From NCBI GenBank assembly GCA_019242175.1, contig JAFAVZ010000238.1, forward strand, positions 1 to 44,634: a stretch of DNA of 44,634 nt, in the 5' to 3' direction. The position numbers and the translations under genes are program-made. Positions within the stretch are counted from its first letter, which is position 1, and each line of letters starts with the position of its first letter. Positions 24,701-38,528 of this stretch are shown here, one piece after another. The notes under the pieces were generated by a model that did not search any database, was not told the origin of the DNA, and was given only the letters and a program-made list of their open reading frames with translations. Source of the stretch: Acidobacteriota bacterium (lineage in GTDB: Bacteria; Acidobacteriota; Thermoanaerobaculia; Gp7-AA8).

Positions 24701-27700
24701 GCGTGAAGGACATCGCCGGCAGCGCGCTCGCCGCGCCGTTCATGCTGACGTTCACCACCGACTTCACCGCGCCGGCCGTCGCGCCGACGGTGAACCAGAG
24801 CACGGTCGAAGGCTGCCTCACCACGTTCACGATCCGCGGCCGCGCATCCGCCACCGGTGCGCGTGTCCGCCTCGACTTCGAGGGTGTCTCCCAGACCGCG
24901 ACCGCCGCGGCGAACGGCGACTACGTTTTCGAAGTCGGCCTCGCCGGACTCACCGGCTTCCACGTCGCCCGCCTCCACGAAGTCGGCGGCGACGGCACGC
25001 TGTCCCCCGAAGCCACCGTCACGTTCCGCCTGGATTGCGCCGGTCCGCAGGTTCTCGGCGCCACCCTCGACCGCGCCGCGAAACGCGTCGTGATCCAGTT
25101 CTCGAAGCCGATGAACGGCGCGACGCTGAGCGTTGGCCCGACCGGCACGATTCAGCTGACGCCCGAGGGCGGCAGCGCGGTCAGCGGCACGGTGGCGCTC
25201 AACGCCGGCGGCGACGCGGCAACGGTCGAGACCACCGCCGACCTCTCCGCCGACACCATCACACTCGTCGTGAAGCGCGACGTGAAGGACGCCGCCGGCC
25301 TCACGCTCCCAGCGGACTATCGCCAGGTCTTCTCCACGTCGATCGCACCGCCGACGACCACCGGTAGCGGCTATGTCTCCGGCGCCGTCTACGACGCCAC
25401 GACCGGTCGCCCGCTCGCCGGCGCGACGCTCGACATCCAGCAGCCGATCGGCGCGTTCTCCCGCAACGGCGGCACCGCGCCGGCTGCGAAATCCGCCGCG
25501 CGCCTCCAGCCCGCATCACTCGCCGAGCCGACGATCCTCACCGACGCGCGCGGTCGTTACACGCGCGTGCTGCCCGAAGGCGCGTACACGGTGCGCGCGG
25601 GCGCGCTGCGCCACACGACGATCTGGCGCCAGGTCGTCGTCAGCGCCGGCGCCGGCGTGCTGCCGATCGACGTCCGCCTCGCCGAACGCGGTCCGGAAGT
25701 CACGACGACCGGCGCTGCGCAGACGCTCGACCACGGCGGCGATACCGTCGTCACCCGCGCCGCCCAACTCTCGCTCGCCTCCGGCTCGCTCCCCGCCGGC
25801 CGCAAAGTCCTCCTCACCTCCGTCGGCGGCCAATCCCTCGCCGGCCTCTTGCCCCTCGGCTGGTCGCCGCTCGCCGCCGCCGAGATCCTCGTGGACGAGT
25901 CGACCTCGACGCCCCTGCCCGGCGCGAAGCTGACGTTCACGCTGACCGCGGAAGAAAGCGCCGACGCGATCGCCGCGGCCCAGCCGCTCTCGCTCGTCGC
26001 CTACGACAACGATCGCGATGAATGGCGCGCCGTCGCCGCCGTCCTCACCCCGAACGCCGACACGCACAAAGTCACGGTGGACATCTCCCTGTCCGGTAAC
26101 TACGCGCTCGTCTTCGCCGACAAAGGCACTGGCCTCGTGACGCCGCCCGCCGCCACCGCCGGCGCCGCGTTGCGCGGCGTCGACAACCCGTGCGTCACGC
26201 CCACCGACTGCTCCTCGCTCGCCGGCCACTCCTTCGACGTCGACCCCAAGACCGTCCTCCCCACGCAGCGCAGCACCGCGAAGCTCGTCGTGGAAGGCGG
26301 CGCGAAGAAGTACCCCAGCGGCACCGCCGTGCAGGCGTTCATCGACGAGCAGCTCAACCTCGCCGACGGCACCACGCTCGTCGATCCGCCGTTCGCCACC
26401 GACCTCCTGCTCTACCGCACGCTGAAGGGCGACTTCGGCACCGCGTTCTTCCACCTCGCGCCGACCACGCAGGCCGCGTCGGTCACGCTGCGCGACGGCG
26501 TCGATCACATCCGCGTCGTCGAATACCCCGGCCGCATCGATCGCGGCGCGCTCATCGGCGTGCAGGGCGGACGCGTTCCGGGCGACGACAAGGTCGCCGT
26601 CGAGATCCCCGCCGGCGCGACGTCCGAAGCGTTGTCCGCGACGGTCGCCTCGCTCTCCGATCAAGATCTCGCCGCATTCGGCACCGTCGCCGGCTTCCGC
26701 ATCGCCGCCGGCTTCACGTTCGCGATGACCCGGGCGAACGCGCCGAAGATCGACCTCGACGGCGACGGCATCGACGATCCGATCGCCGCCCCCGAGCTGC
26801 TGAAGCCCGCCCGCGCGACCGTCACACTGCCGTCCGTGAGCGTCGCCGCGAACGCGCAGGTGATCGTTGTGGAAGTCCTCGACAAGACGCCGTTCGGCGC
26901 GATGCTCCGCCTTGCCGCACGCACCACGCTCGCCGCCTCGGCGACAGACACCGTCCGCCTCTTCACTACGACGGCCATCGATCCGACGAAGCTGCCCGTC
27001 GACGGCATCCTCCGCAACGGCCGCTATCTCGTCCTCGTCTCCAACCAGCCCATCGCCTTCGCCTGGGGCGACCTCCGCCTCGGCGCAGCCACGGGCACGC
27101 CGGTCGCGAACGGACGCGTCACGAGCCTCGACGGTGCAACGGTTCTCGGCGTCGCCGACCTGACCCGCTTCACCGGCATCTTCGCCGTCCCGATCGTTGC
27201 CCAGCCCGCGTCGCAGTTCGTGCTCGTGCCGCGTTCCACCGCGACCGGCGACGGCGTCGCGTACACCGCTGCGGCGGTCGAAGCCGGACGCGAGCTCCAC
27301 GTCGGCAGCCTCCCGCTCCAGGGCCAGGCACCGCGCTTCGAGTCGCTGACGCCCGCCGACAACGCGATCCTGGGTGCGACCGACACGTTCCTCATCCAGG
27401 CGAAGTTCCGTGACGAGATCGACTCTGCGTCGGTCGCGAACGGCATCCTCCTGCGCAACGCCGACAGCGGCGCGCTCGTGCCTGGCGTCGTCGTCGCCGC
27501 GCCGCGCACCGACGGTACCGGCAGCAACGTGACGTTCACCCTCGCGCCGGGCGCCACGCTGAACGCCGCGACGTCTTACGTCATCAGCGTCGAGCCGTCC
27601 CTCCGCGGCCGCTCCGGCACGCCTTTCGGCCAGACGCTCGTGTTTCACTTCTCGACCCGCGCGAACAACGCCGCGCTGCACACGGAACGCATCCACATCT

Positions 27701-30700
27701 CGATCCCCGACGCGCAGGGCCGCGCGACCGTGACCGGCCTCGCCGGCTCGCTGCCCGCCGGCGCGCAAGCCGTCGCCGTACGCCGCGGGACCGACTTCAT
27801 CACCCGCTACCAGACCACCGCGACCAGCGACGGCTCGTTCACGTTCCAGGTCGGAACGAACGCCGAAGACGCCGTGACGCTCACCGACGAGATCGATCTC
27901 CAGATCCTCGACCCCCTGACCCACGGCATCATCGCCGTCGTCCCCCTGACACCTTTCGTCGACCCGAACGGCCACGCGTTCATCGCCCCACCCACCCGCA
28001 CCGTGACCTTCACCACGGCGGAGAACATCACCATCACCGTCCCCGCCGGCGCATTCGATGTGCCGACGAGGGTGGAGGTGGGAACCGCGGCGCGAGAGGT
28101 GTTTGCGTCGGTGCCCAGCTTCGACGCCGGCCTCACATTCCTCGGCGGCGTGAACGTGCAGTTCGACGGGATCGCGAAGAAGCAGATCGACCTCTCCGTC
28201 CCGACGCCTTCCGGCTTCGACACGAGCCGCGGCGCCTACCTGGGCCAGCTCGGCATGTCCGTCCGCGGCCCGCGCATCATGGTCGTCGACGCCATGCGTC
28301 TCGACGGCGGCGACCTCACCACCGCCCTCGGCGGATCCGCGGGCAAGGCCGCGTTGCGCGTCACGGCGAACAACCTCAACGGCCTCACCACCGCCGCCGA
28401 CGTGAAAGCCGCATTCCTCGGCATCATCGCCTCCGGCAGCTACATCGCGATGGCGATGAACGTCTCGCCGACCTGGGCCATGATGTCCGCCGTCTCGCCG
28501 ACGAACGAGATCTTCGTCGAGAGCTTGGAAGAGATCTTCGCCTGGGCTTACGGCTCGCGCTTCTATCTGAGCCAGAAGAGCGGCAAAGTCCTCATGCCGA
28601 TGCCGTCCAACGTGGCGGTCAAGCTCGTCGGCGTCGATGGCGATACCGGCATCACCGTCTTCGAACGCCAGCTTCAGGCCGCGCCTCCCGGCGATCCGCT
28701 CACCGCGGCGTTCTACCCGACCATCACCGACAAGGCGGTTGGCCCGTATCCGACGTACGTGAGCCCCGGCCGCCTCGAGGTCGTCGACCTCATCTCGCCC
28801 GAGTTCACGGACGACAGCCGGCGCGGCATCTCGCTGCAGTACGAGAACGACATCCTGAAGGTCACGAAGTCGACGACCAACGGGCTGCCGAACAACATTC
28901 ACATCGAAGGCTTCAACGTCGCGCGCGGCAATGAAGGCCAGCAGCAGGAAGGTCTCGCCACGCCCATGTCGATCAAGGGCAAGCCGGGCGATCGCATCAT
29001 CCTCCTCATCGGCGAGAAGGAAGTCGATCCGACCGCGCCGCTCCAGGTCGTCTTCGACAAGCCGATCCAGGTGCCGGATCAGCTCTCGGACATCATCTCG
29101 CTGCAGTCGACGGAGCCGGGCAGCACCGACTTTGTCGACATCACGTCGCAGGCCGACCTGAAGATCGACAGCGGCGACCGCCGCATCCGCGTCATCCTCC
29201 CGGCCAGCCTCGGCCGGGGCAAGAAGTACCGCATCGTCGTCCGCTCCGGCGTGAAGGACGCGTCCGGTCTCCTGCAGATGGGCCAACAGCAGACGGTGGA
29301 CGGCACGACCACGACCACGAGCGGCGGCCCGGTCGGCGCGAAGTTCGACTTCCTCACCCGCGCGCCCGGCGGCAAGCTCGGCACGTTCGATCTTCCGTCC
29401 GGCTCCGCGCGCGACATGGCGCTGAGCGGCAACGTCCTCTTCATGAACGCCCAGGAAGGCGGCGTGTTCGCGTACGACGTCTCCGATCCGGCCGCGCTCA
29501 CCAGCGGCCAAGTGGTGAAGCCGTTCGCCAGCTCCCAGGACGTCAACCAGCCGTCCGAGTCCTTCCGCACCTGGGCCCTCGCCACCGACAACCACGGCCG
29601 CCTGTGGACCACGGTGCAGGCGAACATGTTCGGCTACATCCAGTCGTACCGCGTCGAAGACTTCATCGCACGCAAGAACGACGGCTCGAACAGCGCCGGT
29701 CCGTGCGGCGAGAAGATCGCCTGCCACAAAGGCAGCTCCATCGTCAGCTACTCCCTTGGCACCGCCGCCAACATCCCGCAGGGCGACTCGATCGTCACCA
29801 CGAAGCCTGAGGCGATTCCGCGGAAGATGCAGGTACTCGTGCAGGACTTCGACACACCCGAGATGTCGCTGCAGGAAGTGATCAACCAGTACGGCGCGAC
29901 CGTCACGCCGATCGCGGGCGCGCCCGAATGGGTGAAGCTGCACATCCCGATCACCTACAACCAGTCCGGCAACTACTGGGTCCAGCGCACGACGTTCCGC
30001 AACAAAACGCTCGGCCTCTCCTGGTCGACGGATGTCACGCGCACCGGCACGTCCGCGATCGACGGCGTGATCGGCCGCACGACCGACAAGTTCGTGAAGT
30101 CGACGAACATGACGACGTACGGCGTCATCACTCTCTTCGGCTTCGGCGTCGGCGTGTACGACCTCAACGCCGTCGACTCCAACGATTGGACGCCGAAGGC
30201 TCCCGACACCCAGACGCCGATCACCGAACAGGTGCTCATCACCGACGCGAAGAACCCGATGCAGTGCGACAAGACCCCGCCGCCGCCCGTGGCGTGCGAT
30301 CCGGTCGAGGCCGCGAACAACGGGCGCCAATGCGCGATCCCCGATTTATCTCTGGCACCCGAGGCGATGATCATTCCGGTGCGGAATGGGCAGGGGGTGC
30401 CGAACCCGCTGCAGAATTCGCTCGTCCTCTACGGCCTGCACGCCGCGATGGGCGTGCTCGATCTCAAGGTCGTTCCGCCGCAGCAGTTGGAGGGTGATCC
30501 GAACGTCGATCCGCTGAATCCGCGCGCGACCGACCCGAGTTGCAAGCGTCCGTCGGATGGCCTCGTGCTCGCGCGTCGGATGCCGACGTTCGACCATCCG
30601 CGCCTCAACCAACTGCGCACGCTCTACAACCAGGCGCAGTTCTCCGGTCCGCAGGGCGCGTCGTTGCCGCAGCCGTGGGGCCGCTTCAACTCGTCTGCGA

Positions 30701-33700
30701 TTTACACGCGCACGCCTGTGCAGACCGGCGCGAGCGTGCCCGCGCCGATCAACTACGGCCTCGTCGCCGCACGCGACTACGGTCTGCTCGTGCTCAAGCT
30801 CGATGCGAACGGGAAGCTGACGAACGACTCGCTCGTCGACGTGGTGTGGACGCCGGCCGGCGCGTACTCAGTCCGCGTGATCCCCGGCGCCGAGCTTGCG
30901 AGCGTCGTCGACGGTGCGGGCCGCATCCTTCTCATCGACCTCGGGCACATCGACGAAAGCGCGAAAGTCTCGACGCTCTCCGCGTGCGCCGACATCACGT
31001 GTCAGGGCGAGCTTTTCCCGAGCGCGATGGGCTCGCTGCAAGGCGCGCCGGCGGCGCCGGTACCGGGCCAGTATTGGGTGGAAGTGGGCAAGAACGACCC
31101 GCGCATCCTCTGGCAGTCGAAGTTCGATCCGAACGATCCGAACACGTCGACGCTCGCACCGATCATCGATCCCGAGACGGGCATCCTTTACCAGGCGAAC
31201 ATCGACAGCAAGACGGTGAAGATCGTCGCCGCCTCCGATCCACGCATCCGCATCGTCTCCGACCTCGGCAAGCAGAAGCTCGAAGAGGTGGGCGGCATCA
31301 CGCCGCTCGGCATCACGCCGCAGGCCGGCCTCGTGAACTGCAGCAGCGCGACGTGCACCGGCTCGGCCGCGGCGTTCCGCATCGAAGTGAGCCTGCCCGG
31401 CTCGATGGCCGAGTCTCTCGGCGCGGCGAACAACACGCTGCGCCTCGCCGTGGAAAGTGAAGTCGTGCCCGGCTCCGCGTCGCTGCAGATGCCCGACCCG
31501 CTGCCGCGGGCCCACCTGCGCCAACGCTCGCGCGCCGCGATCGTCGACCCCCGCGCGCCATCGGAGTTCAAGCTCACCCGCCTGATCCCCGAGGTCTCCG
31601 ATCCCGACGTTCAGAAACTACGCTTCCAACGCGCGTGGAACCGCTTCATCTCGCCGTGGATCGTGGCCGTTGCCGACCCCCGCGCGAGCGAGAAGTGGAC
31701 CTGGCCCGCGAACACGACGACGCAGAACAAAGAGGACGCCGGCTGCCACGCCTGCGAGCGTCCCTCGAACCTGAAGAACAAGCCCGAACCCGACGTGTTC
31801 GAGCTCTACACCGCCGGCCGCTTCATCGACGTCCGCCCCGAGTACACGTCCGCCGGCACGACCGACTTCGGCCCCGAGGACCCCGGATCTGCCACGCAGA
31901 CCGGCTATGCATACCTCGGCTCGTTCGGCCGCCTGGAGAAACGCATCCCGACGATCATGGCCGACACGATCCGCCCGACACCGATCGCAGTGGCGGGACA
32001 GGCGCCGCCAGTGGCGAACGGTCGTCTGCTGGAGACCACATACCTTCATAGCGGCGAGGTCGAGACCTCGACGTTCGACCTGCTCGCGGCGGGCCGTGCG
32101 GGGATCGACGTTGCGGTCGATCGCACCTACCGCTCGCGGACGATGGGAGCGTCGGCGTTCGGCTTCGGCTGGGAGTCGATCCTGACCGAACGTCTGCGCC
32201 TGATGCCGGACGCGAACGTGGAGTATCGCGACGCGGCGGGAGAGGTGTGGACGTTCAAGCCGCTGACGAATGGCGCTACGCCGTCGGCGCCGGGCGAGCC
32301 GGTGATCTTCGTCGACTACCAGTCGCCGGCGGGCCTGTTCCTCAAGCTCAGCCGCATCGAACGAGGCTGGCGTCTGCAGGATCAGCGCTACCGCTGCACG
32401 TACTTCGACGAGTACGGGCGCCTCGTCGCGCGCTCGGACCAGTTCGCCGATCCGCTCAAGGTGATGAGCGGCAACGACAAGGGCAACGTCGTTTACTACT
32501 TGTATGCGCCGGACGGACGCCTGGCGAAGATTGTCGATCCGGTCAATCGCACGACGAACATCACCTGGTACTCGGATGCCGACACGAACGTCACCGGCAA
32601 CTACCCGGGCCTCTTGAAAGAGATCGTGGACTGGCGCGGTCGGAAAGTGACGTACCGATACGACGCGTCGGGCCGGCTGGTGACGGTGCTCTTGCCGGAA
32701 GCGGCGAAGGCGCAAGACGCGCCGAATGCATACGACCTCACGGGCAGCAAGCGGCCGTTCGTCACGTACGGTTACCAGGGTCCGTTCACGGCGTACAACG
32801 ACGTGGTCGAGCTGTCCGGCAATCTGACGACGACCACCGATCCGGCGGAGAACGCTGGTGCAAACGGCGGCGTTGCCCGCGTCGAGTTCGCGTACGGCCT
32901 GCCGAACGACGCCAACCTTCATCGCGACCGGGTCGAGACGCAGATCTGGCCGTGCGCGAGCTACACGACGAGTTGTGCCGCGAAGTCGGCGACGTTCGCG
33001 TACGCCGACAGCACCCCGCACGCGACGGTCGTCGACATCCTCGGCCAGAAGCGCACATACGAGCTGGAGACGTCGGCCGACCAGCACAAGCACGTCGCGA
33101 AGATGCAGGAAGTGGACGTGCCGGTCCTGGAAGTGGCGACGATCCCGGCGGCGGCGCCGGTGACGATGGCGTCGTCGCCGAAGACGCGGGAGACGGTCTA
33201 TCACTACACGGGACAAGGGGTGCCGGACCGAGTCATCACGCAGAACCTGCGAACGCTGTTCACGGTCGTGCCGGCGGTGGCGGGCTCGACGCGCATCCCG
33301 GGCGAGATCATCACCGAGGTGCGGCGCGAGGACCGGGTGGGGCAGGTGGGCAACAGGCCCTCGAACGTGCTCGTCACGAAGATCGACTTCGATAATGCGG
33401 CAGGCGCCGATCCGCTCCGGACAGCGACGCCGATCGCGGTGAGCAAGCAGGCGGATGGCGGAGCGTTGGTCAAACGCGAGGTGCCGTCGCCCAGCAGCGG
33501 CTCGGGCAAAACGGTGGAGATGACCGACGGCGAAGTGAAGACGAAGCTGGAGTACGACGACCTCGGGCAGCTCGCCAGGCAGAGCCGCCTGGCCACGGGC
33601 GGCAGTGAGGATCCGTCGTTCGAAGTGAAGCCTACGTTCTACCCGGCCGCATATCAGGATGCGACGAACAAGCATCTCGCCCGCGGCCGCCTGCAGGACG

Positions 33701-36700
33701 TCGATCGCAGCGGACGCAAGACGCATTACGACTACAAGCTCACGTCGGACGGCGGGGAGATCGTGGTCGAGCATGACCTCGATCGCCTCGTCGATACGAC
33801 GACGCGGAGCGACGCGGCAGGCCGCGTGATCAGCGTCAAGGTCGCGCGCGAGCAAGCGGTGTTGACCAACGAGACGTTCGGCTACGACGCGAGCGGCCAT
33901 CTGCGCTTCCATCGCCGCATCCAGAGTGGTCTCGACAACCCGAACGTCGACACGACGGCGAAGTACGACGCGCTCGGCCGCGCGATCGAGACGACGACCA
34001 CGAACGCGATAGTGGCCGGCACGGCGCAGAGCCTGACGGTGCGCTGGACGTACGACCTGTCGGAGCGCAGGACCACGACGACGGATCCGCAGGTCGGCAC
34101 GGCCGCGGGTGTCGTGACGGAGACGACCATGGACGCCCTCGGCCGCGTGACGTCGATCGAACGTCACGATGCCGGCAACACGATGAAGGTCGCTTCGTCG
34201 ACGGCCTACGACTACGACGGGAACCCGGCGTTCGAGACCGACGGGGTGCGCACCTCGACGTTGCGCACGTACGACTCATTCGGCCGCACGACCTCGGTCC
34301 TGCAGTCGGATGGGACGTTGGCGACGGTGTCGCTCGATGCATGGGACCAGCCGGTCGAGACGACGACGTACGCGAAGAAGACGGGACCGACACGCGCGGT
34401 GACGTCGCGCCAGACGTTCTCCTACACGAACGCGGGGCGGACGAAGGGGAGCAACGCGCAGGTCGATGCGGAGCGCTTCTTCGCCATGCGCGAGGAGCTG
34501 AAGAACGGGGGAGCCGTGACGCTGACGGCGACCGCGGAGGTAGCCGGCGCCGGCGCCGACATCACCGAGGCGGATGTGACGCGGGTAATGAAGGTGACGC
34601 GCGACAAGGCGGGCCGGGTGATCGAGACGCTCGCCGGCGAAGGAAGCGGCGTCGGCGATCCGTCCACCCCGCCCGCCGGCTCGGGCAATCAGCCGGCGCA
34701 GAGCCGCGTGTTCCGGAAGGAGACGTTCTCGGGCTGGGACGGCGACCTGCCGTCGACGACTTTGGTCGAAGAGCCGCGCGCGGCGACGGCGAAGTACACG
34801 TCGATGACGAACTACGACGCGCTGGGCCGCGCGGTGGACGTGGTCGATGCGGGCAACGCGCAGACGCACATGGATCTCGACGAGGCGGGCAACGTCCGCG
34901 CGGTGCGTCCGCCGGGCTTCACCTCGTCGATGACATCGCAGTACGACGGCCGCGGCCTGGCGGTGTCGGTGACGCATCCGGACAACCGCACGGTCGACTA
35001 CACGTTCGATGCGCTCGGCAACCCGAAGTCGCGAACCGACGAGGCAGAGAAGACGACGACCTACGGCACCGATCCGCTGGGCCGCACCAACGACGTGGCG
35101 TATCCGGACGCGACGGGCACGAAGACGGTGTATGAGAACACCACGGGGCTCGTGGCGGCGACGAAGGACCGTGCGGGCCTGTGGCTCTCGTACTACTACG
35201 ACGCCGCCGGCCGGGTGACGGACATCTACGAGGATGCCACTCCGCGGAGCGCGAACCCGAGCACGACCCCGGCCGAAGGCACGACGCGCGTCCTGCATTA
35301 TGACTACGACGAAGCGGGTCGTCTGCATCGCGCTGCGAACAAAAGCGCAGCGTGCGAGTACGAGGACTACGACCTCTACGGGCGCCCGCGCCGCACGCGT
35401 TCGGTGCGCTACGCGAACGAAAGCGGCCTCGACGCGAGCCCGAAGGTGGCAGACGTCCACACGCAGGAGCACTACTGGTCGGTGTACGGCGCGGAGCGCC
35501 TGCGTTGGCGGATGCCGGCGGCAGGACAGACGGTGCCGGCGACGGATCCGGACTCGTCCTGGCGCGGCTGGATCACCGAGGAGCATGATGCGGGCGGGAA
35601 CAACTCGCGGCTCGGCACGGCGAAGTCGGCCGGCGGTGCGAGCCCGAACGTGGCGGCGATCCTCGAGAGTAACGCGCGCGGCTTCGGGCGCCCCGCGTCG
35701 CGCACGCGAACGCTGACGCCGCCGTACACGCTGCTGACCGACTACGGCTACGCAGATCCGGGCACGGACTCGGGCACGACGCCGCGGAACGGGATGCCGA
35801 ACAAGGTCGGCTACTGGTTCGGAGACTACGCGATGGGCGGGACGAAGCTCGAGCGCGACTCGGCGCTGCGTGCGCACGTAGCGACGGACATCGGGCTGCA
35901 GGACCGCAACTCGACGTGGAACTACGACACGCGGGGGCGTCTGCGCGAGGCGTCGCTCGTCGCCGCGAAGGAGCACGCGACGACAGTGACGGAAGGCCGC
36001 ACGGTTGCGGACTTCCGTACGCGCAGCGTCAACACGGACGACACCATCCACGACGCGCTGGGCAGCCAGGCGAAGACGGTGGAGCCGCAGAGCTGGACGG
36101 CCGAGCAGGATGCCGTGCACGCGATGATCGAGCGGACTGTGGGGGAGGACGGGGCGCGGACGTACGACGTCGAGTCGGGCCGCCGCAAGAGCGATTCGGT
36201 CTGGACGTACAGCTACGACGAGCTCCAGCGCGTGACGCGGATGGTGCGCAAGGTCGGCCCGCAAACGACGGCGAGCCAGGCCCGGCGCATCGACTTCGAA
36301 TACGACCCGAACGGCCGAGTGGTCGGCCGCCGTGCTTGCAGCAATACGGACAACGAGACCTGCGTGCTCGACACCACGCACGAGACGGCAGACGGACTGC
36401 CGGCCGATGTGACGTTCGTATGGGATCCGATCACGGACCGCCTGGTGTCGATCTTCCGCGCCGGCCTGAGCCAGCCGCCGGATGGATCGCCGTCGGGCAC
36501 GGAGGTCGAGGCGACGGCGGGCCTGCTCCGCCAGTACGTGCACGGGGACCGTGCGATGGACGACCCGGTGGAAGTGCTCGTCGCGGACGGCGGAAGCGTC
36601 AAACGCTACTTGTCGCTCTCGGACGAAGCGGCGACCGGCTCGCTGCAAACGGTGGTGAACGGCTCGGACGGAACGATCGTGGAGCGGGTGCTCTACGCCG

Positions 36701-38286
36701 ACTCGTACGGCGACGCGCCGCGTTACATCCAGGGCGCGCTGGTGGACAAGATCACGCTGGAGGTGAAGGCGAAAGATGGCGTCCTCCAGGAGATGACCAT
36801 CAAGGCGCACCTCACGGAGAAGCTCAACGCTCCGACGGTGGCGAACGGAGTCCGGCTCGCAGCGATGAAGGGCGAGGAGGTGCTGCAGACCAGCACCGCG
36901 ACGCCGACTACGGAGAACGACAACACGATCGTGTGGAAAGTGACGCCGTCGGACTGGACGGCGATGTCGACCGCCGCCGACGTGACCAGCATCGAGATCG
37001 CGATGCTCAACTCCCTGCGCGCCGGCTACTACGGCAACCAACCGATCATGTCCGCCCCGTCGTGGGCCGACGCCGCCTTCGGCGTACGCTCAGCCCCCGA
37101 CCGCCCAACCTACACCCGCCTTTCGATCGCGACGATCAACGCGATCATCGCCGCCCCACCCGCCGCGGAGAAGACGCTTTACGAGGTCCCCGATCTCTAT
37201 CTCGCCGCGAGCACCACGTCCCACGCGCGCCTGTTCACCGACTTCCAACTGCTCCCGTACCGCGAGCCCGCAAACGGCGCGATCTTCGCCCGCACTAGAT
37301 GGTACGACCCGTCGACCGGCACGTGGCTCACGCCGGACCCCATGGGGTACGTGGACTCGTCGAATCTGTATGCGGCGTTCGGGATGGACCCGGTCAATGG
37401 GCGGGATCCATTGGGCCTCAGCGAGAGCATTCGAGCGTCCATGGGGTTCGAGGAGGACATCTACAGCGACAGCGTTGGAAGGAAGTCGTGGGGATATGCC
37501 AAGGCTTGGGCGTACTCGTTCTACAACATCACCACGTTCGGCTTCGTATCGCGCCACGATGATCTTTACGAGACTTGGGAGGAGAACGGCGACCGCGGCG
37601 CCTACTGGCGTGGAACGGGAGTCGAAGTCGGCCGAGCGGGAGTGCAAATCGGCGTGACGTGGGCCACCGGCGGTTTGGGGGCTGGTGCGTCTGGAACTCT
37701 AGGCATGTCGATCCTTCGGGGTGCAGGTATTGGCGCGGGCGTCGGCGCTCTTTCCGCCGTGACGGGTGATATCTACGACCGCGCAACAGGTGGGGCTGGC
37801 TACACCAGCAGCGACTACTTCGCGAGTATCGCGGGTGGCGGTGTGTTGGGCGGAGTGATGGGCGGCGTCGGCTTCAAGATGCAACAACGTCAACTGTCGG
37901 AGACAGGGGCTCGGCGCATCATCGATCCTGAAAGAATCGACGCGTGGGATCGCGCAGAGAGAATTTACGATGACATCCGTGCGGACGCGTCGGATGTCTC
38001 TCGTATTGCGAAGAACACCGGATGGGCACAGTCACGCGTGGCTCGAATCAAAGAACACCTTTTCTTTCGAGAACATGGGCTGGATGCTGGAATTAAGAGG
38101 TTCGATGCTGATCCCGATATTGCGAATGCTTGGAGTCGTTTGGCAGCAGGCGATCATGTACCGTCGGATGTGGATCTGTTGCGTCACGAGATTTTTGAGT
38201 CCAAATTTGAAAGTCTCTTTAGGACGAACTATCGAACCGCTCATAATGCGGCGCTTCGAGCAGGTCGCAACTGGGCGGGGGAGTAA
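15634..38286 (+). CDS. Giant (7,550 aa) Sec-signal-bearing RHS/YD-repeat polymorphic toxin with a very long Ig-rich N-terminal region and a C-terminal toxin tip
   Basis: A single uninterrupted ORF. The start is GTG 15634 or, more likely, ATG 15637; the stop is TAA 38284-38286. It has a signal peptide. Many YD repeats are present (VTYRYDASGRL, FGYDASGHL, AKYDALGRA, TNYDALGRA, YTFDALGNP, YYYDAAGRV, HYDYDEAGRL, WNYDTRGRL, FEYDPNGRV). The RHS core terminus reads RTRWYDPSTGTWLTPDPMGYVDSSNLYAAFGMDPVNGRDPLGL. Confidence 0.95.
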   Translation: MMSSLRTFPRAALLALLAFAGVGMAVRAQTPVTYSESFDSYQPNRSVTGWSDTRVGSSRVIHEFTTYRDPLRSSNIVYGDRQSESGEHLLAGAHAVQTLHDDGHGDDRTGYFSTLTTKTFAGQGRFELKGRFLRTKDSTRIGFTFFSSYPEKDQYYLIGTGAKHYQHDDCDDDHLIAGALHNDSDHGEDDRNMELVGFSAGYLTGDTESSFVPDDDRWYWFRIQVDNASGVTSIRARFWADGASEPSTWPIDARDNGTTRLITGRIGMWSGGSGDAFIDDLTASSPQDRTAPTIAFYESNVKLDTATTAKFNRNPAIDVRVTDDLSSIPTKTIKLDGATYTNLTPITTEGSHTLTVHAVDSAGNAADATLPLFIDKTAPTITLLESGQPLPAQPKYKRTAAIEIKVADARSTFTTTATLDGAPYTSLTPITTDAAHVLFVKATDALGNVATVQVTIVVDTHAPAIQFKESGNVLDPAAEQKYKADPRIEIKVTDAVAATPGVTATLDGAAYTSNTPITTPGRHTIAVHATDDVSNAADATLRLVLDKNNPTVAVTVGGQPVDLTRTAVYKQNVAINVTATDATTSVVTKDIRLDGVAYVPGTTISTEQLHTLTVHAVDEVGNFTDVVFKFLLDKAPPRIELWEAGVKLDPAVVAKFRRNAAIEIRATDAASSVTYTATLDGANYVSLTPVASEATHHLTVHATDEAGNIADAALDLIVDKTAPVAAFTEGGNALDPTRTYSWNRSPIAIGVTVTDNLAGLQSNVTLDGSPYVSATPIAAEGPHVVKVHAVDVVNNVTDAQLSFVIDKTGPIIELTDGTLVLDPAARALFDHAPALGIKVTDKYSTSSYAAKLDGANWTVGQPIADGAHTLAIHAVDALNNATDVTLTMLVGTHPPVVTLTVGAAPLTENQLFNHSVTVDAHVVAVSTLFDVAATLDGAPVSLTLPIAGDGAHTLVVTATDELHHVGSVTVHIRIDTKKPVVTISANGDPLTSSKAFAAAVTLNATADEPTSSLTLTVDNAPFTLGAQVTADGAHTVTANATDQAGNAADPVTVTFHIDSHAPAVTLREGASPFPDRKTFNRAIVANADVTSATTPTKTATIDNVAYTLGTSYGVEGAHHLKVTATNAAGLSSVAEADFTIDLTAPTLQLLGNGVAFVEGKKFREDVIVTTTAADNLGTPTVAITLDGHTLEAGTTITEEKEHTIFAQAVDAGGNAADVGPFHFLLDKTKPVLTITVAGNPLANGDKFKTAITPAITVEDATATTETYTLDTHAYTKGDAISGEGSHTLTATVRDVVGNETVVGPLTFVIDTLPPVVTITEGGQPFTGGGKYKRVVKPIVTIQDTSETFVTATLDDGPYTINTDVATDGVHTLKIQVIDELGWPTVIPPIAFTIDTKAPVVVIQEHGAPLQNHAFLKQDAVLTFAIDDLTNTTVAATLDGDAYTAGQPVTTEREHTIQVTVIDELGTATTAGPLSFTIDKTPPVVQITEGAQPLVSGALLDHDAQPQLHVTDTTAWTVVAKVDGADFQFGDRIATEGGHTLDVSVTDAAGWTTVVPTISFFVDKTAPAVTVTQNGQPLESGALFDHDITPVVTYTDLSDTTLALKLDNAPFTTGTLVSAEAMHVLTGTATDRAGHVTTIGPITFTIDKSAPVITIKESGAAFVAKYGRDVVPQIAIDDLTAFTKEIVLDGAPYDGIAPIHADGNHTLTVTATDALHHTTTAPPIHFLIDQTAPVVTVTESGAPFEGKAYNRPQLTPVIAIADTTQTTTTALLNEAQFQSGTAITAEGKYTLSVAVTDELEHTTTVPTIAFAIDRTAPVVELVEDGKPLTSGLAFKDPVHPIANVHDTTEITVVATMDNAPYTLGNEVAAEGAHTLKVIATDEVGLSTTVQVSFVIDKTKPAITITAPAPGSAVGSGSVVVTGFADDAATVDVNGVNATIDPATHTFTTDTPVALTEGSNTITAVGVDKAGNVGSLTITVTVDNRAPDVAIAAPLANACINATQLEVKGVATDSSAMTIDVSVDDGTAVRATFGSDHKSWSATLPVQDGNVTIVVLGKDATGHESRLTVPVRIDTAKPVVTVLESGIAFGNGYYRRPLAPQIRVTEDDPRVAITSTLSTNGGAPAPFATGATIAAEGAYTLAVSAKDCANNTSDPLSIAFVLDVTAPSILSTDPPNGGAIGTTTKAITGTVNSDDVASVVIEGSSVAATLTGRTFTFNGVPLVDGTNRLALVAVDRAGNASRYDLAFTVKSKAPVVRILENDAPIAAGTIFRRPVAPTVTSDDADAHIDAKLNGAAFTSGTRIENDGSYTIIATATDAFNHVSESATATFSVRRTGPLVHITAPTENQTIDTDLVTVTGTVSPADVTSVRVNNTVATVTADGHFTAPNVPLDLGENLLVATAVDAAGNASTDAVSVTRAAGAPAILLNVPADGTVTNRPSTAVIGQVLSVPESGLVKVNATDVPVDSTGVFRKNDFPLTEGPNAINATVTGADGTTASVTVHVTADFTPPVLHVLANGTELVDGTRFATAPQLALDVTDNFPDVTSSFTLDGIAATSSTTIANGGHTLAAVARDKAGNETRVSRSFLVGSSASAGGCGLSGFDPANNATVNAARVTITGRSGAAAVLVNGVRAQLAGGTFAATIDLATEGANTVTVRCADANGTPTADAAETLTLYRYLSAPSIAITSPSGAEPIEVITDKITVTGTISAEATSGDVNGLPIPIGAATWSVPNVRLANGLNIITARARNAAGRLTIQTLRVVSRKGTPQIAITSPISGTQTGATAIDVSGTYTNVDPARITVGAIAATAHPLSDTTGTYSATVAIPANATTTLTATGRNRADEATTAAVQVQNVAGPSISISAPLDDTTYASTFAGQVTVTGTIDAAAGSTVQVNGVNATLTGNAFSAAIDLPAGAATPVVARVTTPDDKSALDSIRLLRLTGDLRVLDSFPTANAVGVDRAVLLLALFSNPLDGATVTAGTSVKLADASGAAITTSVFVDKDAISIAPQAALAAGTTYTLTIAGVKDIAGSALAAPFMLTFTTDFTAPAVAPTVNQSTVEGCLTTFTIRGRASATGARVRLDFEGVSQTATAAANGDYVFEVGLAGLTGFHVARLHEVGGDGTLSPEATVTFRLDCAGPQVLGATLDRAAKRVVIQFSKPMNGATLSVGPTGTIQLTPEGGSAVSGTVALNAGGDAATVETTADLSADTITLVVKRDVKDAAGLTLPADYRQVFSTSIAPPTTTGSGYVSGAVYDATTGRPLAGATLDIQQPIGAFSRNGGTAPAAKSAARLQPASLAEPTILTDARGRYTRVLPEGAYTVRAGALRHTTIWRQVVVSAGAGVLPIDVRLAERGPEVTTTGAAQTLDHGGDTVVTRAAQLSLASGSLPAGRKVLLTSVGGQSLAGLLPLGWSPLAAAEILVDESTSTPLPGAKLTFTLTAEESADAIAAAQPLSLVAYDNDRDEWRAVAAVLTPNADTHKVTVDISLSGNYALVFADKGTGLVTPPAATAGAALRGVDNPCVTPTDCSSLAGHSFDVDPKTVLPTQRSTAKLVVEGGAKKYPSGTAVQAFIDEQLNLADGTTLVDPPFATDLLLYRTLKGDFGTAFFHLAPTTQAASVTLRDGVDHIRVVEYPGRIDRGALIGVQGGRVPGDDKVAVEIPAGATSEALSATVASLSDQDLAAFGTVAGFRIAAGFTFAMTRANAPKIDLDGDGIDDPIAAPELLKPARATVTLPSVSVAANAQVIVVEVLDKTPFGAMLRLAARTTLAASATDTVRLFTTTAIDPTKLPVDGILRNGRYLVLVSNQPIAFAWGDLRLGAATGTPVANGRVTSLDGATVLGVADLTRFTGIFAVPIVAQPASQFVLVPRSTATGDGVAYTAAAVEAGRELHVGSLPLQGQAPRFESLTPADNAILGATDTFLIQAKFRDEIDSASVANGILLRNADSGALVPGVVVAAPRTDGTGSNVTFTLAPGATLNAATSYVISVEPSLRGRSGTPFGQTLVFHFSTRANNAALHTERIHISIPDAQGRATVTGLAGSLPAGAQAVAVRRGTDFITRYQTTATSDGSFTFQVGTNAEDAVTLTDEIDLQILDPLTHGIIAVVPLTPFVDPNGHAFIAPPTRTVTFTTAENITITVPAGAFDVPTRVEVGTAAREVFASVPSFDAGLTFLGGVNVQFDGIAKKQIDLSVPTPSGFDTSRGAYLGQLGMSVRGPRIMVVDAMRLDGGDLTTALGGSAGKAALRVTANNLNGLTTAADVKAAFLGIIASGSYIAMAMNVSPTWAMMSAVSPTNEIFVESLEEIFAWAYGSRFYLSQKSGKVLMPMPSNVAVKLVGVDGDTGITVFERQLQAAPPGDPLTAAFYPTITDKAVGPYPTYVSPGRLEVVDLISPEFTDDSRRGISLQYENDILKVTKSTTNGLPNNIHIEGFNVARGNEGQQQEGLATPMSIKGKPGDRIILLIGEKEVDPTAPLQVVFDKPIQVPDQLSDIISLQSTEPGSTDFVDITSQADLKIDSGDRRIRVILPASLGRGKKYRIVVRSGVKDASGLLQMGQQQTVDGTTTTTSGGPVGAKFDFLTRAPGGKLGTFDLPSGSARDMALSGNVLFMNAQEGGVFAYDVSDPAALTSGQVVKPFASSQDVNQPSESFRTWALATDNHGRLWTTVQANMFGYIQSYRVEDFIARKNDGSNSAGPCGEKIACHKGSSIVSYSLGTAANIPQGDSIVTTKPEAIPRKMQVLVQDFDTPEMSLQEVINQYGATVTPIAGAPEWVKLHIPITYNQSGNYWVQRTTFRNKTLGLSWSTDVTRTGTSAIDGVIGRTTDKFVKSTNMTTYGVITLFGFGVGVYDLNAVDSNDWTPKAPDTQTPITEQVLITDAKNPMQCDKTPPPPVACDPVEAANNGRQCAIPDLSLAPEAMIIPVRNGQGVPNPLQNSLVLYGLHAAMGVLDLKVVPPQQLEGDPNVDPLNPRATDPSCKRPSDGLVLARRMPTFDHPRLNQLRTLYNQAQFSGPQGASLPQPWGRFNSSAIYTRTPVQTGASVPAPINYGLVAARDYGLLVLKLDANGKLTNDSLVDVVWTPAGAYSVRVIPGAELASVVDGAGRILLIDLGHIDESAKVSTLSACADITCQGELFPSAMGSLQGAPAAPVPGQYWVEVGKNDPRILWQSKFDPNDPNTSTLAPIIDPETGILYQANIDSKTVKIVAASDPRIRIVSDLGKQKLEEVGGITPLGITPQAGLVNCSSATCTGSAAAFRIEVSLPGSMAESLGAANNTLRLAVESEVVPGSASLQMPDPLPRAHLRQRSRAAIVDPRAPSEFKLTRLIPEVSDPDVQKLRFQRAWNRFISPWIVAVADPRASEKWTWPANTTTQNKEDAGCHACERPSNLKNKPEPDVFELYTAGRFIDVRPEYTSAGTTDFGPEDPGSATQTGYAYLGSFGRLEKRIPTIMADTIRPTPIAVAGQAPPVANGRLLETTYLHSGEVETSTFDLLAAGRAGIDVAVDRTYRSRTMGASAFGFGWESILTERLRLMPDANVEYRDAAGEVWTFKPLTNGATPSAPGEPVIFVDYQSPAGLFLKLSRIERGWRLQDQRYRCTYFDEYGRLVARSDQFADPLKVMSGNDKGNVVYYLYAPDGRLAKIVDPVNRTTNITWYSDADTNVTGNYPGLLKEIVDWRGRKVTYRYDASGRLVTVLLPEAAKAQDAPNAYDLTGSKRPFVTYGYQGPFTAYNDVVELSGNLTTTTDPAENAGANGGVARVEFAYGLPNDANLHRDRVETQIWPCASYTTSCAAKSATFAYADSTPHATVVDILGQKRTYELETSADQHKHVAKMQEVDVPVLEVATIPAAAPVTMASSPKTRETVYHYTGQGVPDRVITQNLRTLFTVVPAVAGSTRIPGEIITEVRREDRVGQVGNRPSNVLVTKIDFDNAAGADPLRTATPIAVSKQADGGALVKREVPSPSSGSGKTVEMTDGEVKTKLEYDDLGQLARQSRLATGGSEDPSFEVKPTFYPAAYQDATNKHLARGRLQDVDRSGRKTHYDYKLTSDGGEIVVEHDLDRLVDTTTRSDAAGRVISVKVAREQAVLTNETFGYDASGHLRFHRRIQSGLDNPNVDTTAKYDALGRAIETTTTNAIVAGTAQSLTVRWTYDLSERRTTTTDPQVGTAAGVVTETTMDALGRVTSIERHDAGNTMKVASSTAYDYDGNPAFETDGVRTSTLRTYDSFGRTTSVLQSDGTLATVSLDAWDQPVETTTYAKKTGPTRAVTSRQTFSYTNAGRTKGSNAQVDAERFFAMREELKNGGAVTLTATAEVAGAGADITEADVTRVMKVTRDKAGRVIETLAGEGSGVGDPSTPPAGSGNQPAQSRVFRKETFSGWDGDLPSTTLVEEPRAATAKYTSMTNYDALGRAVDVVDAGNAQTHMDLDEAGNVRAVRPPGFTSSMTSQYDGRGLAVSVTHPDNRTVDYTFDALGNPKSRTDEAEKTTTYGTDPLGRTNDVAYPDATGTKTVYENTTGLVAATKDRAGLWLSYYYDAAGRVTDIYEDATPRSANPSTTPAEGTTRVLHYDYDEAGRLHRAANKSAACEYEDYDLYGRPRRTRSVRYANESGLDASPKVADVHTQEHYWSVYGAERLRWRMPAAGQTVPATDPDSSWRGWITEEHDAGGNNSRLGTAKSAGGASPNVAAILESNARGFGRPASRTRTLTPPYTLLTDYGYADPGTDSGTTPRNGMPNKVGYWFGDYAMGGTKLERDSALRAHVATDIGLQDRNSTWNYDTRGRLREASLVAAKEHATTVTEGRTVADFRTRSVNTDDTIHDALGSQAKTVEPQSWTAEQDAVHAMIERTVGEDGARTYDVESGRRKSDSVWTYSYDELQRVTRMVRKVGPQTTASQARRIDFEYDPNGRVVGRRACSNTDNETCVLDTTHETADGLPADVTFVWDPITDRLVSIFRAGLSQPPDGSPSGTEVEATAGLLRQYVHGDRAMDDPVEVLVADGGSVKRYLSLSDEAATGSLQTVVNGSDGTIVERVLYADSYGDAPRYIQGALVDKITLEVKAKDGVLQEMTIKAHLTEKLNAPTVANGVRLAAMKGEEVLQTSTATPTTENDNTIVWKVTPSDWTAMSTAADVTSIEIAMLNSLRAGYYGNQPIMSAPSWADAAFGVRSAPDRPTYTRLSIATINAIIAAPPAAEKTLYEVPDLYLAASTTSHARLFTDFQLLPYREPANGAIFARTRWYDPSTGTWLTPDPMGYVDSSNLYAAFGMDPVNGRDPLGLSESIRASMGFEEDIYSDSVGRKSWGYAKAWAYSFYNITTFGFVSRHDDLYETWEENGDRGAYWRGTGVEVGRAGVQIGVTWATGGLGAGASGTLGMSILRGAGIGAGVGALSAVTGDIYDRATGGAGYTSSDYFASIAGGGVLGGVMGGVGFKMQQRQLSETGARRIIDPERIDAWDRAERIYDDIRADASDVSRIAKNTGWAQSRVARIKEHLFFREHGLDAGIKRFDADPDIANAWSRLAAGDHVPSDVDLLRHEIFESKFESLFRTNYRTAHNAALRAGRNWAGE
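15720..16495 (+). other. N-terminal concanavalin/LamG-like jelly-roll head domain (tentative) with His/Asp-rich inserts
   Basis: The segment ends in ...RLITGRIGMWSGGSGDAFIDDLTAS, typical of the last strands of LamG/ConA-like lectin folds. Inserts HDDGHGDDRTGY (15931-15960) and HYQHDDCDDDHLIAGALHNDSDHGEDDRN (16123-16209) are present. Confidence 0.45.
16495..21313 (+). repeat. 19 tandem ~84-aa HYR-like / bacterial Ig-like coding repeats (period ~254 nt)
   Basis: Each unit has the form (I/V/L)D(K/T)xxPxhxhxExGxxL....(F/Y)......h.V.D.........LDG..Y....h...G.HTLTV.A.DxAGN. By eye, unit starts are at about 16495, 16754, 17008, 17265, 17527, 17786, 18045, 18301, 18553, 18802, 19051, 19303, 19558, 19810, 20062, 20314, 20566, 20812 and 21064, with the next boundary at 21313. 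Confidence 0.85.
21313..25690 (+). other. Heterogeneous Ig-like stalk: about 9 domains of ITAP..VxVxGxV...VxVNGVxA....F.....L..G.N.I.A.A.D.AGN type, three further HYR-like units, two SbsA-type Ig (Big_5-like) domains (about 24455-24760 and 25041-25340) and one carboxypeptidase-regulatory-like (TTR-like) domain (about 25363-25690)
   Basis: Big_5-like sequence: LRVLDSFPTANAVGVDRAVLLLALFSNPLDGATV..TYTLTIAGVKDIAGSAL. CarboxypepD_reg-like sequence: GYVSGAVYDATTGRPLAGATLDIQ...TDARGRYTRVLPEGAYTVRAGALRHTT. These assignments rest on motif recognition only. Confidence 0.55.
32041..37419 (+). other. RHS/YD-repeat shell (about 1,793 aa) including the RHS repeat-associated core terminus
   Basis: The N-terminal plug-like start reads YLHSGEVETSTFDLLAAGRAGIDVAVDRTYRSRTMGASAFGFGWES. 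It is followed by dozens of YxYDxxGR-type repeats and ends with PVNGRDPLGL (PxxxxDPxGL, 37390-37419). Confidence 0.9.
37420..38283 (+). other. C-terminal toxin tip (288 aa): a Gly-zipper/hydrophobic segment (about 37620-37880) followed by a ~130-aa unassigned domain
   Basis: The tip begins immediately after the DPLGL cleavage motif. The Gly-zipper segment reads GVQIGVTWATGGLGAGASGTLGMSILRGAGIGAGVGALSAVTG...IAGGGVLGGVMGGVGF. The distal domain reads ...IAKNTGWAQSRVARIKEHLFFREHGLDAGIKRFDADPDIANAWSRLAAGDHVPSDVDLLRHEIFESKFESLFRTNYRTAHNAALRAG. G+C is lower and codon choice shifts here (TTT, AAA, ATT, GAT). Confidence 0.8.
38277..38283 (+). promoter_or_regulatory. Shine-Dalgarno-like GGGGGAG 5 nt upstream of the immunity-gene ATG
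   Basis: The local sequence ctgggcGGGGGAGtaagcATG places the purine-rich block inside the last codons of the toxin gene. Confidence 0.5.
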
Positions 38287-38288
38287 GC

Positions 38289-38528
38289 ATGGCCTTCTAC
38301 ATCGAGATCAATAAAGAGAGCGAGGACGCTCGGGCTGCGCAGTACCGGTTCGAGGCCGACAGGCAAGGAGTAGGTCGGTTCGAGATTGACAAGGCAACAG
38401 GTCAAGTCGAGTTGCTATCACCAATGCCGGGCGACGAGAAAGAAAAAGTTTTTCAGCGAGCAGCTGTGAAAATCATTCGAGAGTGGCGGGAAGGCCGGCT
38501 GCCTGAGAGAGCAGAGTGGGCTTCGTAG
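38289..38528 (+). CDS. Putative cognate immunity protein (79 aa, cytoplasmic, no signal peptide)
   Basis: The ATG lies 2 nt after the toxin stop and has an SD-like site. It shares the reduced G+C of the toxin tip. A small acidic/basic soluble protein (MAFYIEINKESEDARAAQYRFEAD...) in this position is typical of polymorphic-toxin immunity genes. I recognise no family. Confidence 0.65.
   Translation: MAFYIEINKESEDARAAQYRFEADRQGVGRFEIDKATGQVELLSPMPGDEKEKVFQRAAVKIIREWREGRLPERAEWAS

Follow-up and report, generated by a model that had tools for sequence, protein, structure and literature searches.

A putative toxin domain with an immunity gene at the tip of a giant Rhs protein from an Acidobacteriota bacterium

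The window analyzed here, a stretch of 44,634 nucleotides from an Acidobacteriota bacterium (Thermoanaerobaculia, Gp7-AA8; contig JAFAVZ010000238.1), encodes a giant Rhs/YD-repeat polymorphic toxin of 7,550 aa (15634..38286, forward strand) that ends in a cargo of 288 residues. The best explanation of the available evidence, which we consider probable, is that this is the cargo of a Sec-exported Rhs toxin rich in immunoglobulin (Ig)-like domains, in which an optional pre-toxin module is joined to an unnamed toxin module and followed by a gene for the immunity protein. To judge from its sequence relatives, the 128-aa C-terminal domain of the cargo behaves as the C-terminal domain of a polymorphic toxin.

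The toxin domain and its downstream partner

The C-terminal toxin domain (cargo residues 161-288, 37900..38283, forward strand; folded core about 175-280) is delimited by its homologs and by an AlphaFold2 (AF2) model. Word-index searches returned 76 and 389 homologs of the domain; nearly all of the 76 proteins matched by the cargo align only to cargo residues about 158-288, with 45-67% identity, and in almost every case the aligned region is the extreme C-terminus of the matching protein. An exhaustive profile search with an alignment of the domain (A1) retrieved 2,266 sequences at E <= 1e-3, 1,616 at E <= 1e-10, and 223 at E <= 1e-30, each counted as the representative of a cluster at 50% identity. 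The names that the sequence sources give to these relatives are all generic ("hypothetical", "RHS", "LXG", "pre-toxin TG").

The gene that follows the cargo (38289..38528, forward strand) starts 2 nt past the toxin stop codon and encodes a soluble protein of 79 aa. Among 80 genome loci, nearly every toxin ORF (open reading frame) is accompanied by an ORF of 79-92 aa within a few bases downstream, and 72 of 78 downstream ORFs are homologous to that of the window (phmmer E 1.7e-28 to 5.5e-4), sharing the pattern MAFYI.I.K...Y+F...G...K.tG......F.RAA.K....W..G.lP..T.WAS. Because a homolog is nearly always present directly downstream, the product is read as the immunity protein of the toxin domain, which agrees with a preliminary description of this DNA, made from the sequence alone, that had proposed the 79-aa ORF as the partner of the toxin. 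None of the approximately 72 members of the immunity family, many of them from diderm bacteria, has a signal peptide, a lipobox, or a hydrophobic segment; the 79-aa ORF has no match in Pfam (ten homologs were scanned as well), NCBIfam, PHROGs, or PADLOC, nor among PDB sequences.

The toxin/immunity cassette is compositionally foreign and of horizontal origin. The GC content drops from about 68% to 51-54% across 37900-38500, and the GC content at third codon positions (GC3) falls from 0.91 in the Rhs body to 0.71 in the N-terminal module of the cargo (residues 1-157; module 1) and to 0.50 in the toxin domain; the immunity gene has a value of 0.60. This two-step drop fits the separate acquisition of two modules.

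The domain is associated with a wide range of N-termini, including LXG, WXG100, PAAR, DUF4280, RHS, LysM, PG_binding_1, and PT-TG. Judged by carrier, the delivery routes would comprise type VI secretion systems (T6SS; Rhs, PAAR, and DUF4280), type VII secretion systems (T7SS; LXG, WXG100, and PT-TG), type V secretion systems (T5SS; CdiA-like proteins, exemplified by a "hemagglutinin repeat-containing protein" on a Rhizobium plasmid), and phage MuF proteins. When each species was represented by a single genome, 159 relatives were retrieved, which are found among Proteobacteria (Xenorhabdus, Citrobacter, Providencia, Burkholderia, and Achromobacter), Firmicutes (Listeria, Bacillus, Paenibacillus, Clostridium, and Lachnospiraceae), Myxococcota, Cyanobacteria, Verrucomicrobia, Fibrobacteres, and others.

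MuF/minor head proteins that carry the domain are present on 43 viral contigs. In one of them (L105, 1909-3610), the gene downstream of a portal gene encodes a head protein of 497 aa that ends in the toxin domain, and it is overlapped by an ORF of 83 aa, which is a homolog of the immunity gene. This head protein shares 96.8% identity with gp4 of CDMH1, a cultured temperate phage of Clostridioides difficile (HG531805.1, 3341-4831, gp4/gp5); this protein is one that phages phiMMP01, phiMMP03, and phiC2 share only over the first 345 residues; such C-terminal divergence among sister phages is the polymorphic pattern described for MuF toxins (PMC5576092). The MuF toxins of temperate phages resemble the window system in that the CDMH1 head protein ends in the toxin domain and is accompanied by the immunity gene, but differ in carrier and delivery route; many MuF C-terminal extensions have been left as "unknown domain" (Jamet et al. 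2017, PMC5576092).

Nostoc and Anabaena possess a stand-alone toxin gene of 123-124 aa with a 79-aa partner 56-76 nt downstream (L061, 3965-4339; L072, 3971-4342). In Nostoc, the 123-aa toxin begins at the domain itself. The neighbors are housekeeping genes, which encode a GHMP kinase, an NDH subunit, an APS kinase, and a threonyl-tRNA synthetase, and the pair adjoins the same GHMP-kinase gene in two species. We regard such pairs as polymorphic-toxin cassettes that have been domesticated in the manner of toxin-antitoxin systems. Decayed copies of the toxin gene are also encountered. In Cupriavidus pauculus (L079, 4001-4383), the toxin ORF ends after the AW..L..G helix, and a frame that by eye resembles the OrfA of IS3-type transposases starts just downstream; the copy of an Achromobacter metagenome-assembled genome (L043) has in-frame stops within the HE..E helix.

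By its sequence, the carrier in the window is an Rhs/YD-repeat polymorphic toxin with RHS repeats, DUF6531, and an Rhs core that ends at DPxGL. The product of 15634..38286 begins with a probable Sec signal peptide, (V)MSSLRTFPRAALLALLAFAGVGMAVRAQ (15634..15720, forward strand; judged by eye), and continues with Ig-like arrays that take up about 5,000 residues; DUF6531 and the RHS repeats follow, and the Rhs core leads to the cargo. Pfam recovers Big_13, Glucodextran_B, Big_3_3, Big_5, DUF6531 (E = 2.8e-6), and RHS_repeat (PF05593, E = 6e-20), the latter two in the region 26734-38283. The Rhs-associated core domain at the end of the shell (37258..37419, forward strand) matches the NCBIfam model Rhs_assc_core (TIGR03696; E = 3.4e-11; score 43.5 bits, cutoff 32.5) with residues 587-640 of the translation of 35500-38283; the match reaches model position 76 of 76, and its last position aligns with the final L of PLGL (37419).

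This is the end of PVNGRDPLGL (37390..37419, forward strand), a predicted site of aspartyl autoproteolysis and the sole occurrence of P-x4-[DE]-P-x-G-[LWFIMY] in a six-frame scan of the 44.6 kb. The translation of 37300-38400 reads ...AAFGMDPVNGRDPLGL, followed by SESIRAS (in a longer excerpt, ...YAAFGMDPVNGRDPLGL directly precedes SESIRASMGF), and terminates with a stop codon at 38284-38286. Cleavage would fall after L7262 (37419), and because the ORF comprises 7,550 aa, the cargo corresponds to residues 7263-7550. The preliminary description had recognized an Rhs signature at exactly these coordinates and a cargo that starts with the serine at 37420; the former is corroborated by the end of the TIGR03696 match and by the uniqueness of the site, the latter by the translation and the length of the ORF, and the short strings that it quoted are likewise present in the translation. 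The whole cargo is free of cysteine.

Predicted structure and relation to known toxins

The AF2 model of the toxin domain, computed with A1, has a mean confidence (pLDDT) of 88.2 and a predicted template modeling score (pTM) of 0.81. It consists of three helices (25-38, 41-50, and 54-66), a beta-hairpin (69-76), and three further helices (82-93, 98-117, and 121-130). The first three helices resemble a helix-turn-helix (HTH) motif; the stretch DVSRIAKNTGWAQSRVARIK reads as such and is the source of weak HTH matches in Pfam. Invariant or near-invariant residues (in cargo numbering) are K211, H213, F215, H219, F228, D229/D231, W238, R240, G244, D250, H256, E257, E260, E264, and the stretch from Y271 (Y-R-T-A-H) to H275. 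Two groups stand out in alignments A1 and A4: H213-x5-H219 (HLFFREH; 38056..38076, forward strand), a pair of invariant or near-invariant histidines that are candidates for metal binding or catalysis, and H256-E257-x-x-E260 (RHEIFE; 38185..38199, forward strand), a candidate active site on the long helix, in which the histidine is invariant and the glutamates are near-invariant. The preliminary description had singled out the residues in these same two motifs. D229/D231 and H275 are present in most members. A divergent branch of the family (represented by protein P0001; hhalign probability 98.1%, E = 9.5e-14) retains H213, H219, H256, E257, and E260, with AAHEMGE in place of RHEIFE.

Since the His/Glu/Asp cluster is situated on adjacent helices and the hairpin, the domain is interpreted as a metal-dependent enzyme, and the sequence conservation suggests a metal-dependent hydrolase that acts in the cytoplasm. 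A cytoplasmic target is indicated by the lack of a signal peptide among the immunity proteins, the stand-alone pairs of Nostoc, and the MuF fusions. Because of the three HTH-like helices, a nuclease is our best guess for the activity; the second is a peptidase of the zincin type, for which HExxE and H275 would be contributed by two successive helices. The domain resembles His-Me (HNH-type) nucleases in that a beta-hairpin is followed by a helix, but that helix has no conserved metal ligand, and membership in this class was dropped for that reason. It resembles zincins in the long helix with H-E-x-x-E and the succeeding helix with a histidine, but has HExxE instead of HExxH. Neither Pfam nor PDB provides a match, and both likenesses are regarded as resemblance only.

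The folded domain is preceded by the conserved motif [EQ]-T-G-[AG]-R, which reads ETGAR in the window (37900..37914, forward strand; A1 positions 11-15). Its glycine (G13 of A1) is conserved in at least 90% of the sequences over all carrier types, and the motif is disordered in the model (pLDDT <50). It occurs in nearly all carriers, whatever their delivery system, starts 4 residues past DPLGL in the Rhs protein of Citrobacter, and is missing from the stand-alone forms of Nostoc. The motif may serve in processing or in recognition, or it may form an arm in contact with the immunity protein.

The preliminary description had been unable to assign the C-terminal domain to a known toxin family, and library searches lead to the same result. 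The tip matches no family of Pfam (Ntox/Tox-*, HNH/AHH/GHH, ART, deaminase, EndoU, and metallopeptidase families among them), NCBIfam, or PADLOC even at E <= 1, and the toxin domain has no match in PHROGs. When 33 members of A1 were compared with Pfam, only scattered sub-threshold matches and no consistent family emerged, with several of the HTH type over the first helices. Against PDB sequences (phmmer and hmmsearch, including the profile), the best E-values were 0.06-0.1, and searches with the P0001 variant returned chance-level matches only; TelC and Ntox15, provided that their structures are in the PDB copy, are thus among the solved toxins without similarity to the domain. A profile match to goose-type lysozyme (E = 0.1) was dropped, as the alignment extends over no more than residues 91-161 of the enzyme and no structural match supports it; the catalytic glutamate of goose-type lysozyme presumably lies upstream of this segment.

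Rhs polymorphic toxins that are paired with an immunity gene are a textbook type of system. The window protein shares with Rhs toxins whose cargo is released at PxxxxDPxGL (T6SS effectors such as Tse5/RhsP1 and Sec-dependent WapA-type toxins) the RHS repeats, DUF6531, a core ending in DPxGL, a variable C-terminal toxin, the immunity gene immediately downstream, and the compositional break at the cassette. It differs from them by its probable Sec signal peptide, the approximately 5,000 Ig-like residues, the unnamed toxin, and the absence of a T6SS gene nearby; the window contains no gene of T6SS, T7SS, or contact-dependent inhibition (CDI) systems and neither PAAR nor VgrG.

Dozens of new polymorphic-toxin domains are reported every year. 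In the libraries searched, the toxin and immunity families appear to be unnamed and the predicted fold to have no solved neighbor, but recent literature may list them, and there is a real chance of overlap with a family that is already listed and uncharacterized. Recent screens have described nine unnamed families as PTs (Nachmias et al., 10.1101/2021.10.19.465003), 24 as Pandoomain Tox (PMC13483458), and 45 as STox (PMC12994826). For PT1 and PT7, crystal structures are reported in the preprint (10.1101/2021.10.19.465003); provided that these have been deposited in PDB, the lack of a PDB match excludes both as counterparts of the domain. Identity with a recently reported unnamed family such as PT5 (WP_084153669.1, Rheinheimera baltica) is possible. 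Compared by description only (10.1101/2021.10.19.465003), PT5 overlaps with the toxin domain in size, in its all-alpha fold, and in two taxa, but it is reported to have no immunity gene and not to occur in Firmicutes, whereas the present domain is common in that phylum and nearly always comes with an immunity gene.

The glycine-rich module and alternative explanations

The first 157 residues of the cargo (module 1; 37420-37890) consist of two parts. The first (residues 1-65; 37420..37614, forward strand) is aromatic-rich and mostly polar, is conserved in two other Rhs tips (alignment A2), and has a pLDDT of 43-55. The second (residues 66-152; 37615..37875, forward strand) is rich in Gly, Ala, and Val and moderately hydrophobic, and is a candidate for a membrane-active pre-toxin segment. 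It contains three GxxxGxxxG runs (G101/105/109, G140/144/148, and G141/145/149). The two homologs of module 1 are P0001 and P0076, with 73% and 33% identity in A2, respectively. In P0001, an orphan Rhs tip of 465 aa that is encoded behind a full Rhs gene, the module is joined to the divergent toxin branch and followed by a different ORF of 139 aa, which is unrelated to the 79-aa immunity family; in P0076, an Rhs protein of Hydrogenedentes, it is joined to an unrelated C-terminus. The contig of P0001 (L083, 1-4830) carries an array of orphan cassettes, with a full Rhs gene, a 202-aa ORF, a DUF7919 protein, the 465-aa orphan tip, and the 139-aa ORF.

Conversely, the toxin domain occurs in other Rhs proteins without this module. 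It stands right after DPxGL in the Rhs proteins of Citrobacter and Providencia, and the linker between DPxGL and the first toxin helix comprises 16 aa in Citrobacter youngae, 21 aa in Providencia, and 30 aa in a Paenibacillus, compared with 174 aa in the window, 176 aa in a Lachnospira, and 214 aa in a Rhs protein of Microcoleaceae. This range among Rhs carriers indicates that module 1 can be separated from the toxin and that the toxin does not depend on it, and the comparison of the tips shows the cargo as a mosaic of two independently exchangeable modules. By analogy, module 1 most likely represents an optional pre-toxin or membrane-translocation module; that it is a stand-alone pore toxin is possible but less likely.

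Two known elements occupy a comparable position. Tde1, a T6SS DNase of Agrobacterium with an Ntox15 domain, possesses an N-terminal GxxxG glycine zipper that experiments have shown to be required for translocation and not for DNase activity (PMC10240207). In both proteins, a segment resembling a glycine zipper precedes a separate enzymatic toxin domain and is proposed to cross or permeabilize the inner membrane. However, no sequence relationship to Tde1 was found, the toxin of the window is not Ntox15 (no Pfam match), and the segment of the window is much longer (~150 aa) and located behind an Rhs cleavage site. PT-TG (PF14449) directly precedes the toxin domain in LXG proteins of Listeria and Paenibacillus (in P0065, PT-TG spans residues 273-320 and the toxin domain starts at 335), is likewise Gly-rich, and has the same position as module 1; unlike these segments, the tip in the window gives no match to PF14449 even at E <= 1. 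A general hydrophobic or Gly-rich enrichment of pre-toxin segments is not claimed, because the differences over all carriers are weak (median maximum hydropathy 0.96 versus 0.67 further upstream; Gly+Ala 0.19 versus 0.18).

Several observations weigh against the preferred explanation. As regards module 1, P0001 and P0076 are its only homologs in the collections searched, and neither a search with the module alone nor a metagenome scan with a three-sequence profile added any. In the AF2 model of the whole tip, its helices have a pLDDT of only 40-55, and residues 139-174 are disordered. The peak hydropathy (Kyte-Doolittle, 19 residues) of 1.37, in a stretch with two hydrophobic maxima, is below that of a classical transmembrane helix. 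The Gly/Ala/Val-rich stretch noted in the preliminary description, which had put it at about 85 aa, is real (88 aa, 32% Gly), as are its GxxxG runs; the serial spacing, by contrast, does not exceed what composition predicts, with 10 GxxxG pairs versus 8.3 +/- 2.0 in shuffled sequences, 27% of which reach 10, and is therefore not independent evidence.

As regards the toxin domain, Foldseek searches with the model, a check proposed in the preliminary description, yielded nothing at E <= 0.001 (best E 1.5 in PDB and 0.41 in BFVD) and recovered no known catalytic fold, and the helix after the hairpin is devoid of the metal ligand that His-Me/HNH nucleases have there. A minority of proteins do not carry the domain as a terminal warhead. 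P0194 and P0196 have 170-390 residues beyond it; in P0195 (1,852 aa), which also contains LysM, it occupies residues 1583-1706 and is followed by Tox-REase-2 (1753-1840), so that the protein is either a two-warhead toxin or evidence for a non-terminal role of the domain. Two giant high-GC proteins carry it repeatedly. P0077 (5,865 aa) has four copies (1950-2073, 2093-2212, 4341-4469, and 5561-5684), which retain H213, H219, H256, E257, and E260; P0200 (6,656 aa) has several (about 1825-3501), some without HE, and those with RDALAE in place of RHE..E look catalytically dead. The tested slices of P0077 contain no Pfam domains, and the guess of a glycosyltransferase-toxin domain in this protein, which had no Pfam support, was dropped. 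Fusions of some family members to LysM or PG_binding_1 make a target in the cell wall possible. The literature offered no assay of toxicity, cleavage, or membrane activity for any member of the family.

Three other explanations account for parts of these data. The Gly/Ala/Val-rich module might itself be the weapon, a glycine-zipper pore former that depolarizes the target like Tse5-CT, EsxX, TelE, or the ionophores of CDI systems, with the C-terminal domain as an accessory for targeting or regulation or as a second toxin. The glycine content of the stretch, its three GxxxGxxxG runs and two hydrophobic maxima, and the motif GGVLGG, which is invariant in the three homologs, would fit such a role, and two reports document depolarizing glycine-zipper toxins in LXG and Rhs/CDI contexts (PMC12744356, PMC11630599). 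A match of residues 62-178 to PHROG 342 (internal virion protein; E = 8e-6) points in the same direction but is located in a compositionally biased region, and neither the number of GxxxG pairs nor the hydropathy is distinctive. Moreover, the module has two homologs compared with thousands for the C-terminal domain, which other Rhs proteins deliver without it, and the sole conserved downstream partner tracks the C-terminal domain and not the Gly-rich module. No gene for a membrane protein that could provide immunity against a pore former follows the 79-aa ORF within 38530-40400; these approximately 1.9 kb (70-75% GC, flat GC content over codon positions, Arg-rich ORFs on both strands) look non-coding. 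Because the modules recombine independently and an immunity gene of the membrane type is missing, the combination of a translocation module with a new effector, which the preliminary description had listed as an option, fits better than a pore-forming toxin, which we consider improbable.

We assign an equally small probability to an attack of the C-terminal domain on the envelope, in the periplasm or on the wall, by a lysozyme- or transglycosylase-like activity or an action on a lipid-linked precursor. The fusions of some members to LysM, PG_binding_1, or PG_binding_3 would be consistent with such a target, as would the weak match to goose-type lysozyme, the presence of SltB1 and SltB2 among the non-significant rows of the Foldseek output, and, if the family were PT5, the rounding of Escherichia coli cells upon expression of PT5 (10.1101/2021.10.19.465003). 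However, the lysozyme alignment is confined to the short segment mentioned above, the structural matches all have E > 1, the immunity proteins of many diderms are devoid of export signals, and cytoplasmic stand-alone pairs in Nostoc and capsid-delivered MuF fusions exist. Still less likely is a processing or adaptor role, in which the domain would be, for example, an autoproteolytic metallopeptidase or a partner-binding module, recurring in large multi-effector proteins, and the small protein its regulator or chaperone. The internal position in some proteins, the recognized toxin Tox-REase-2 behind it in P0195, the four copies of P0077, and the degenerate copies of P0200 could be explained in this way, and HExxE...H on two successive helices of the model recalls the active sites of zincins. 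Nevertheless, the great majority of members have the domain as the last of the protein, cyanobacteria have it alone with its partner, and this partner is always immediately downstream, in the position of an immunity gene, over all carrier types; moreover, polymorphic toxins are known to include proteins with two toxin domains. It is because of the non-terminal or repeated copies and the fusions to LysM and PG-binding domains that the envelope and processing roles stay alive, at a low probability.

Under the preferred explanation of a pre-toxin module joined to a cytoplasmic toxin, the Rhs core would cleave itself after PVNGRDPLGL, and the freed 288-aa cargo would be held in the Rhs shell until delivery, as is known from other members of the Rhs family. 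Module 1 would then aid the insertion into or the crossing of the cytoplasmic membrane of the target, for which a carrier without T6SS may need help. The second module (37900-38283) would act as a toxin in the cytoplasm of the target, perhaps with a metal-dependent site built from H213, H219, H256, E257, and E260 and, in most members, D229/D231 and H275, and would be neutralized by the 79-aa protein (38289-38528). A more far-reaching proposal is doubtful in our view. It holds that the 128-aa domain is the first of an enzyme superfamily with a new structure, characterized by an H-x5-H...HExxE site, an HTH-like lobe, and a new cytoplasmic target or chemistry, that has spread over at least five routes (T5SS, T6SS, T7SS, Sec-dependent Rhs proteins, and phage capsids) and has been domesticated as a toxin-antitoxin pair in Nostocales; the Gly-rich module would then be a self-contained translocation device of T6SS-independent, surface-displayed Rhs proteins.

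Genomic context and significance

The Rhs gene is preceded by an ORF of 4,864 aa (186..14780), with Big_6 Ig domains and C-terminal LVIVD/beta-propeller repeats, and by an ORF of 286 aa (14777..15637) without a family match. The ORFs overlap by 4 nt each (14777-14780 and 15634-15637), and both upstream ORFs appear to be translationally coupled to the Rhs gene; the three genes have the appearance of an operon for giant surface proteins. Long ORFs antisense to the giant genes (3,111, 1,604, 921, and 849 aa; for example, 15643-24978 on the reverse strand) are an expected artifact of a GC content of about 68% with a GC3 of 0.91 and not genes. Further downstream, an ORF of 721 aa (40404-42569) starts with a signal-like sequence and contains a segment of strong hydrophobicity near residue 582 and a stretch (VVIVDTSVSM) that resembles the metal ion-dependent adhesion site of von Willebrand factor A domains; it has no match in Pfam.

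Discoveries of this type are now routine, and the toxin/immunity pair described here is a widespread and testable member of a familiar class. If toxicity is confirmed, one of the larger toxin/immunity families that are still unannotated, with more than 2,000 sequence clusters, could be named. Its members occur in pathogens associated with insects and humans (Xenorhabdus, Proteus, Providencia, Citrobacter, the Bacillus cereus group, and Listeria) as well as in a phage of C. difficile and in Nostoc, and the confidently predicted toxin fold has no neighbor among solved structures. With a toxin of 128 aa, an immunity protein of 79 aa, and obvious residues to mutate, the pair provides a clean test system, and the existence of carriers with and without the Gly-rich module offers a natural comparison that bears on how Rhs toxins independent of T6SS move a cytoplasmic effector across the inner membrane.

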